Positions 3,569 to 3,946 of a DNA stretch of 4,507 nt are shown piece by piece (position 1 is the first letter of the stretch; each line of letters begins with the position of its first letter). Made by a program: the position numbers and the translations under genes. Origin of the DNA: a virus. Its lineage: Duplodnaviria; Heunggongvirae; Uroviricota; Caudoviricetes. The stretch is taken from IMG/VR virus record IMGVR_UViG_2695420698_000007; one strand, written 5' to 3'. The notes under the pieces were generated by a model. The model made no database searches, was not told where the DNA came from, and saw nothing but the letters and a program-made list of their open reading frames with translations.

Positions 3569-3946
3569 ATGACCAACAAAGAAAACAAAGATAAATATAT
3601 TAACAAGTTCAAGAAAGAGCTTTCAAAATATATACAACCAACTGCTGGAGTGGACATTCAATTATTTAACTCTAAGGATGGTGGTGGTGTAATTAAAGCC
3701 ACTTTGAATAGAAGTGGAAAAAGAAAATCATCTATTGCTGGTAATTTTACTAAATTAGGTGAGGCAATTACCTCGAGTGGGCAGAGGGTTTTTGGTGGTG
3801 ATCTATCAAATGTGAATTTTTACGGAACAAATACGATTTTTGATGGAGATACAATATTTTTAATTAAATCACCTGATTCAGAGGAGTGGTCATCACAAAA
3901 AGCTTCCAAAGACGTAGAGGGCATCGTATTTGGAGGGAAAAAATGA
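3569..3946 (+). CDS. Hypothetical protein, 125 aa: lysine-rich, soluble, no recognisable family; first gene of the AT-rich cargo cassette
   Basis: Long ORF in a strongly AT-rich segment, with AT-biased codon choice consistent with real coding. N-terminus MTNKENKDKYINKFKKELSKY is Lys-rich with no signal peptide or hydrophobic helix. Repeated Gly-Gly motifs occur (DGGGV, FGGDL, FGGKK). The ribosome-binding site is weak (GGA 8 nt upstream). Stop TGA at 3944-3946. Confidence 0.55.
   Translation: MTNKENKDKYINKFKKELSKYIQPTAGVDIQLFNSKDGGGVIKATLNRSGKRKSSIAGNFTKLGEAITSSGQRVFGGDLSNVNFYGTNTIFDGDTIFLIKSPDSEEWSSQKASKDVEGIVFGGKK

Follow-up and report, generated by a model that had tools for sequence, protein, structure and literature searches.

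Phage lambda's RexA and RexB are a prophage-encoded pair of proteins, possibly expressed in lysogens, with a soluble protein followed by a small, polytopic inner-membrane protein. Rex remains silent when RexA is scarce relative to RexB. Short multi-helix membrane proteins likewise are found with cytosolic partners, in defense-island contexts, among the 2TM and 4TM effectors of CBASS systems as well as among retron-associated transmembrane effectors. Type II toxin-antitoxin systems with membrane toxins also are compact and translationally coupled operons, are found on mobile elements, and occur near toxin-antitoxin pairs, with antitoxins normally in excess of their toxins. Lambdoid morons such as bor and lom, by which is meant AT-rich genes which carry a promoter-like element and which lie between conserved modules, are present in only some of otherwise similar prophages. 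These categories are not fully distinct, as many abortive-infection systems are toxin-antitoxin-like, so that defense and toxin-antitoxin models overlap. New candidate defense pairs, in addition, are common.

Considered here is a two-gene cassette, A-B, from a 4,507-nucleotide stretch of DNA, i.e., ‘the window’, which is part of a lambdoid prophage resembling DLP12. The likeness of A-B to RexA/RexB is one of architecture only. Intact B, at 142 aa, may be set beside the approximately 144 aa of RexB, but A, at 125 aa, differs from RexA, at approximately 279 aa, and B has three predicted helices versus the four of RexB. The Rex pair is found in the immunity region whereas A-B is found at the replication/nin junction and, unlike RexA/RexB, A-B also occurs outside of prophages, in many phyla. 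Neither A nor intact B matches Rex families in Pfam, nor is there a PADLOC match. A further likeness may be one of stoichiometry, as gene A lacks a Shine-Dalgarno sequence (SD) while gene B possesses a strong one, such that function, by analogy, may depend on the ratio of the two proteins. A-B, I infer, would follow the RexA/RexB logic with unrelated proteins. Differences from the other systems are similarly distinct. Unlike with CBASS and retron effector systems, A-B comes without a cyclase, reverse transcriptase, or known signaling component, and A falls into no known sensor family. Versus type II toxin-antitoxin systems, A is without a recognizable antitoxin or DNA-binding domain and the asymmetry in expression appears to be reversed. 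Versus lambdoid morons, the content of A-B is new and its transcription is opposite to that of neighboring phage genes. What seems to be familiar, that is, is the logic of a prophage-borne pair of soluble and small membrane proteins; what appears to be new is that neither A nor B belongs to a characterized family and that the predicted fold of A is without a solved counterpart.

Gene A (3569 to 3946, plus strand) extends exactly from an ATG at 3569 to a TGA ending at 3946 and encodes a 125-aa protein, apparently soluble and alpha/beta, with no canonical SD. An ATG at 3556, considered as an alternative start, is rejected as it lies in a different reading frame. The identical open reading frame is found in E. 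coli in RefSeq as hypothetical protein WP_000182282.1. As an earlier note on this DNA described, the protein is lysine rich and N-terminally basic: 17 of its 125 residues are lysine, its pI is 9.5, and residues 1 to 25 sum to a net charge of +4. Overall charge, however, is not conserved among 57 family members, for which pI ranges from 4.7 to 9.9, with a third of them acidic. What is conserved instead is solely the positive N-terminal helix, with a median net charge of +4 and a net charge of at least +2 in 86% of those same proteins. The Gly-Gly motifs to which that note also drew attention indeed are present (residues 38-40, 76-77, and 122-123), but their number, four overlapping occurrences versus 1.7 expected from composition (P = 0.07), is not clearly above chance, and the only conserved glycines among them are G39 (98%) and G77 (79%). 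The C-terminal motif, with glycine in just 14% of members, is explained in this protein by its codons, which form the SD of gene B.

That gene A is real and under strong purifying selection is indicated by comparison of its sequences among four enterobacterial lineages (100, 92, 76, and 67% identity), which yields dN/dS ratios of 0.07 to 0.11. A word-indexed search with gene A returns only close relatives from the Enterobacteriaceae. When 1.84 billion cluster representatives are searched exhaustively with a profile, 111 clusters are returned at E <= 1e-3, 30 of which are retained at E <= 1e-10. Nearly all of the 111 are 120 to 135 aa long and match end to end. The label of ‘orphan’ that had been applied to this protein therefore must be dropped, as these are 111 clusters of homologs. 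A side observation is that protein clustering at 90% identity places A (125 aa) and the unrelated B (142 aa) together in one cluster, which probably was bridged by a read-through or fused gene call and as such is an artifact when members are counted.

Relatives of gene A are found in at least eight bacterial phyla. A scan of genome contigs using enterobacterial patterns of gene A returned no match, and relatives in species-representative genomes were found via a narrower, central alignment. The latter include Nitrospira, Neptuniibacter and Salinisphaerales (Gammaproteobacteria), Acidobacteriota, Thermodesulfobacteriota, and Myxococcales and, further, Synechococcus (Cyanobacteria), Gemmatimonadota, and, among Bacteroidota, Bacteroides, Flavobacterium, and Mariniflexile. 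The family consensus consists of YINNFRR..S.YLKPGIG, GGA..EF, Q.AFGGNL.G..F.GTN, LIK, EW, and DV, with G86, T87, and K100 invariant and with Y10, G39, F84, W107, and D115 nearly so; Q72 and N88 also are among the conserved residues. The sole named family that gene A matches is PHROG 18061, of unknown function, in this case from end to end (E 9.3e-85 against phrog_18061, residues 1-125 on profile positions 1-125). Scans of A against Pfam, NCBIfam, and PADLOC-DB v2.0.0 gave no match, and neither did Pfam and PADLOC scans of the 57 relatives give a meaningful one. Literature on the accessions and on nin-region defense hotspots held nothing about the A-B pair.

An AlphaFold2 model of A, based on a 22-sequence alignment, is of high confidence (pLDDT 92.5, pTM 0.86); it supersedes an earlier run, based on a nine-sequence alignment (pLDDT 58.5), for which Foldseek matches were meaningless. 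The order of elements in the model is alpha-beta3-alpha-beta2-alpha, i.e., a helix (3-19), three strands (27-35, 40-47, and 52-60), a second helix (63-69), a loop (70-86), two more strands (87-92 and 95-100), and then helices over 104-121. Foldseek searching of this model against the PDB gave nothing at E <= 1e-3, with the top-ranked match having a query TM-score of 0.31, and profile searching of PDB sequences yielded nothing above noise (E 0.022, to Spc97). An uncharacterized siphovirus protein (TM 0.62, E 2.6e-3) ranks first when predicted viral structures are searched instead. A, as modeled, then has an undescribed fold and is a small, cytosolic protein of alpha/beta type. A known, unrelated fold, which the earlier note had named as grounds against its own reading, was not what structure prediction returned, i.e., there was no PDB match.

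That note had also likened a short stretch of A, GDLSN VNFYG, to pentapeptide-repeat units. Only about two such units are present (DLSNV NFYGT), there is no Pfam match for A even at E <= 1, and in the model the stretch lies within the long loop over residues 70-86 and the start of strand 4 rather than in a pentapeptide beta-helix. Indeed, a right-handed quadrilateral beta-helix is absent from the AlphaFold2 model. One apparent link between pentapeptide repeats and gene A, protein P0013 from a 1145-nt ENA contig (locus L060), consists of a pentapeptide-repeat gene joined to the last 50 codons of A. The contig switches from that unrelated gene to gene A at a shared 17-mer, GTGATCTATCAAATGT, and with 1.65x coverage and joining at this 17-mer it is a probable assembly chimera and was set aside. 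The string DLSNVNF does occur, at L060, in a genuine pentapeptide protein.

The partner of gene A is gene B. In its intact E. coli form this is a gene of 142 aa whose ATG overlaps the A stop codon (ATGA) and whose SD, GGAGGG (3932 to 3937, plus strand), lies inside of A codons G122-G123, with a predicted anti-SD duplex of -9.8 kcal/mol. A purine-rich, GGAGG-like run is found upstream of the B start in most but not all of ten lineages compared. Hydropathy indicates three hydrophobic segments, i.e., approximately three membrane helices, and a positively charged loop precedes the last of these in most members, often as RFK and as HKHK in E. coli. From hydropathy along with the positive-inside rule, B is predicted to sit in the inner membrane with roughly 35 to 45 N-terminal residues in the cytosol, a segment which carries the conserved pattern G..G..E(V/I).(D/N)L....G...S.Y..P. 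Full-length B matches PHROG 16940 (E 2e-74), for which function also is unknown. Scans of B against Pfam and NCBIfam gave no match, PADLOC gave only a non-significant match to a 4TM effector (E 0.17), a PADLOC scan of 20 B relatives gave no meaningful match, and a profile search of PDB sequences gave only noise (E >= 0.7). Automatic names for B are inconsistent with each other: VIT1/CCC1, EcfT, and Stt3. As with gene A, dN/dS is low (0.07 to 0.19). Alongside relatives of A, B is from 117 to 154 aa in size, and of the 60 B-family proteins that were retrieved all but two, gene calls that run slightly longer, are at most 142 aa, and none carries additional domains.

Pairing of A with B is obligate and the two genes are physically coupled. 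That is, B is directly downstream of A in 14 of 14 testable GTDB loci, in every IMG/VR locus which extends past the end of A, in all of the enterobacterial loci examined, and in all of the metagenomic loci examined, the latter at 26 to 35% identity. Searching in reverse, from four B proteins, always leads to a gene of 125 to 128 aa directly upstream, with which B shares 4 or 8 nt. Junctions are mostly the 4-nt ATGA overlap, with Bacteroidota displaying instead either an 8-nt overlap or a gap of 1 to 3 nt. Pairwise identities of A and of B, furthermore, co-vary (r = 0.92 over 21 loci). No records were found linking PHROG 18061 and PHROG 16940 as a pair. The partnership with a downstream membrane protein that the earlier note had proposed thus has held up at all loci examined, whether in E. 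coli or as far afield as Bacteroidota, though the particular open reading frame which that note had in mind as the membrane protein (4029-4370) is a remnant of a frameshifted 142-aa gene that begins instead at 3943. That B is a pseudogene in the window, and that the last Gly-Gly of A doubles as the B ribosome-binding site, are two points which the note had overlooked.

The signals which precede gene A are of a different strength from those preceding gene B. Within the 20 nt that precede the A start, the strongest anti-SD duplex is -3.1 kcal/mol, bearing out the weak ribosome-binding site previously remarked upon, versus the noted -9.8 kcal/mol for B and versus -10.3 to -12.3 kcal/mol for the flanking rusA, ybcO, ninE, and ybcN genes of the window. 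Inspection by eye of gene A relatives in other phyla also reveals no evident upstream SD. A candidate -10 promoter element of the cassette, GTATACT (3526 to 3532, plus strand), lies 37 to 43 nt upstream of the gene A start. Aligned enterobacterial lineages have GTATACT, GTATGAT, or GTATAAT at the same position even as the surrounding sequence diverges; a consensus promoter scan did not flag the element, for want of a good -35. In distantly related bacteria a different motif, GTTA(T/G)GC, recurs approximately 26 to 35 nt before the A start (loci L020, L023, L027, L029, L031, L034, L035, L036, L038, L039, and L049), with a chance expectation of about 0.01 per locus. Candidate roles for it are those of an operator, an element of the 5'-UTR, or a promoter -10 carried along with the cassette. 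A second motif, ATCGAG, is found directly before the A start in one subgroup.

Turning to the prophage setting, the window begins with the end of an IS3-family (IS2-like) element (1-32), which at 32/33 cuts the region upstream of a complete porin gene of OmpC/NmpC type (160-1242; 360 aa; Porin_1 E 3e-153). In this prophage, as in DLP12, the porin gene adjoins that of the Q antiterminator. Genes on the minus strand then follow (Q antiterminator, ylcG, rusA, ybcO, ninE, and ybcN/NinB; 1431-3304), after which comes the cassette. The E. coli cassette is found between ybcN and replication gene P, on the strand opposite to that of its phage neighbors. Another enterobacterial prophage (67% identity) carries it in the same site, and so do three different Klebsiella pneumoniae prophages, where it lies between DUF1367 and replication genes. 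Its GC content is 0.29 to 0.40 versus 0.50 to 0.60 for the flanking nin genes, and it is carried by 46 of 5426 complete E. coli genomes. Strains A7 and F11 are examples of E. coli with an intact cassette. AT-richness, opposite strand, the -10-like element, and rarity among E. coli all are moron features, and the cassette of lambdoid prophages accordingly resembles a moron, with expression in the lysogen a possibility. Prophages carrying A-B are found among E. coli, Shigella, Klebsiella, and Enterobacter. The cassette otherwise is known from prophages and IMG/VR contigs rather than from GenBank phage records, with a tblastn search of 50,697 of the latter giving no cassette match. In a related lambdoid prophage (L030, 5665-7348), this same inter-module region also carries colicin-like and immunity-like genes, a DndB-like gene, and an HNH gene, cargo which makes the replication/nin junction look like a cargo hotspot.

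The copy of A-B found in the window is itself probably inactive. Versus the GGATGGC of E. coli A7, the alignment indicates that the window has GGATGC, i.e., one G has been lost after 3967. The 5' end of gene B in the window (3943 to 3990, plus strand) consequently comes to a premature stop at 3988-3990, after 15 codons. The remainder of the gene, out of frame, lies at 3969 to 4370 on the plus strand, corresponding to residues 10-142 at 100% identity by tblastn, and encodes the rest of the cytosolic N-terminal segment along with the three predicted membrane helices. The open reading frame which begins with GTG at 4029, ending at 4370 and covering positions 30-142 of phrog_16940, was considered as an independent gene but rejected, as it is without an SD (anti-SD duplex of -3.3 kcal/mol) and is identical to residues 30-142 of intact B.

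Downstream, between the cassette and phage replication genes, is a GC-rich hairpin (4424 to 4442). This was flagged as terminator-like on the minus strand by a scan and is followed on the plus strand by an A/T-rich run; it possibly is a bidirectional terminator. No part of the window matches an RNA family in Rfam. Homology to 13 other cassette copies ends at 4478, and the rest of the window (4479 to 4507) matches the IS1 terminal repeat, with the terminal approximately 30 nt recurring 56,633 times across E. coli genomes. The IS1 end replaces the replication gene P of intact prophages. An IS3-family end to the left and an IS1 end to the right together are a pattern that is typical of IS-rich Shigella genomes. 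The deleted-G allele is real, since IMG/VR contig L006, which is independent, shares the deletion as well as the IS1 junction. With B frameshifted and IS1 abutting the cassette, at most A would still be made from this copy. Given this inactivation, the biological consequence of the module for the window is small. A third copy, L014, has a different frameshift in B, such that B is broken and A intact in three copies (the window, L006, and L014). In L043, by contrast, it is A that is frameshifted while B looks intact, though this is a MAG which may contain indel errors.

Outside of prophages, A-B has been inserted, as judged from gene order, inside or at the edge of complete defense operons, and may work together with them. 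In Bacteroides (L046 and L053) the pair lies between the methylase (Mod) and Res of a type III restriction-modification (R-M) operon, in L041 directly after HsdM-HsdS, in L038 directly before BrxA, and in L034 its neighbors are a Lon_C protein on one side and an SNF2 helicase on the other. As a raw count, four of 13 GTDB loci are in or beside type I/III R-M, BREX, or SNF2/Lon_C sets. Two neighbors match DrmD (E 9e-204), these from a pooled set and not mapped to a locus. Toxin-antitoxin neighbors also are seen (BrnA, Gp49-HTH, HigB-HTH, and Xre-MbcA), as are a Rce1-like protein and transposases, and roughly half of non-prophage loci are beside housekeeping genes, including ones for ValRS, ThiC, a chemoreceptor, and a CLC channel. 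In a single cluster, P0087 (447 aa, from a 1.7-kb Logan contig), the A domain and an HNH nuclease (E 1.3e-12) form one fused protein, which hints that the A domain may be coupled to different effectors.

The reading that fares best, though it is put forward tentatively, is that A-B is a two-gene abortive-infection or exclusion module that consists of a soluble sensor and a membrane effector. The assignment to defense rests on guilt by association, since no PADLOC model or characterized homolog matches. Gene A then would open a mobile operon of two genes which, as a moron with its own promoter and transcribed opposite to its phage neighbors, might be expressed in the lysogen. The A protein would serve as a cytosolic sensor or regulator, a role which the earlier note had suggested and which is plausible, presumably docking on the N-terminal segment of B. 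Upon infection by another phage, A would switch B into a membrane-damaging or depolarizing state, with the switch resulting either in an aborted infection or instead in exclusion of the incoming phage. With no SD, A would be made sparingly, while B, given the strong SD within the end of A along with the ATGA overlap, would be made efficiently, a combination that would keep the sensor limiting. Held with still less confidence, though by no means far-fetched, is that A-B represents an undescribed, widespread anti-phage system with a sensor fold that is absent from the PDB and a minimal, three-helix effector. As A-B is found repeatedly inside type I/III R-M operons and beside BREX, it possibly would be a second-line ‘backstop’, that is, a means of abortive infection which fires when a neighboring system has been inhibited or overwhelmed.

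One may instead view A-B as a toxin-antitoxin or addiction module, with B a small membrane toxin and A a protein antitoxin, together stabilizing the prophage or island. Consistent with this are the tight coupling of the genes with the soluble gene first, the mobility and sporadic occurrence of the cassette, its clustering with other toxin-antitoxin pairs, and the breakage of B with A left intact in the window and in two other copies, which is the order of loss expected were B toxic. The absence of an SD from A together with the strong SD of B nevertheless runs counter to the excess in which antitoxins usually are made, and A is without the DNA-binding domain typical of autoregulating antitoxins. 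The seemingly intact B that accompanies a frameshifted A in L043 furthermore would be lethal under a strict version of this model, subject to the indels which that MAG might contain, and insertion within R-M and BREX operons fits defense better than addiction. An addiction module thus seems unlikely, and somewhat more doubtful still is a membrane function that does not involve conflict, e.g., as a small transporter, a stress pair, or a lysogenic-conversion factor, with A the regulatory or chaperone subunit of B. The latter would account for the several loci that are flanked by housekeeping or metabolic genes as well as for automatic annotations which, if inconsistently, name B as transporter-like. 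Those names contradict one another, however, and lack Pfam or NCBIfam support, no metabolic neighbor is conserved, and the cassette is distributed patchily, by horizontal transfer, in prophages and in defense-island contexts.

Improbable, to a greater degree, is that the main role of A is to bind nucleic acid as a sensor or regulator, perhaps a pentapeptide-like one, that controls or reports to the membrane protein, as the earlier note had ventured. Although the conserved positive charge of the N-terminal helix (median net +4) and the one relative fused to an HNH DNA nuclease point in this direction, the pI of the protein is not conserved, with a third of members acidic, and Pfam, PDB, and structure searches detected no helix-turn-helix, OB, or other nucleic-acid-binding family or fold. 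Both the claim of nucleic-acid binding, for which no known domain or fold was found and which the unconserved overall charge also disfavors, and that of pentapeptide likeness, given the absent Pfam match, the loop conformation of the segment, and the chimeric nature of P0013, therefore fared poorly. Gene A as a spurious open reading frame or as a functionless, decayed remnant is a reading with next to no likelihood. Although the cassette of the window indeed is degraded, with B frameshifted and IS1 adjacent, dN/dS of approximately 0.07 to 0.11, full-length homologs across phyla, and a high-confidence predicted structure argue to the contrary, and for the gene A family the spurious reading is refuted. 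The earlier note itself had tied that reading to an absence of conserved homologs, whereas 111 homologous clusters were found. The holin families supply another point of comparison for B, with no Pfam match to these, and the prophage possesses its own holin and lysozyme genes elsewhere.

Returning to the abortive-infection or exclusion reading, were A-B a defense module then a compact system of approximately 800 bp, consisting of two unnamed families, would be added to the anti-phage repertoire. With the fold of A, as modeled, having no match among solved structures, its trigger along with its means of coupling to the membrane would represent new biochemistry. For phage therapy against Enterobacteriaceae, unrecognized, prophage-borne exclusion systems are practical obstacles. 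In terms of annotation, two ‘hypothetical proteins’ that occur on over 1000 contigs would be given an identity as a linked pair.
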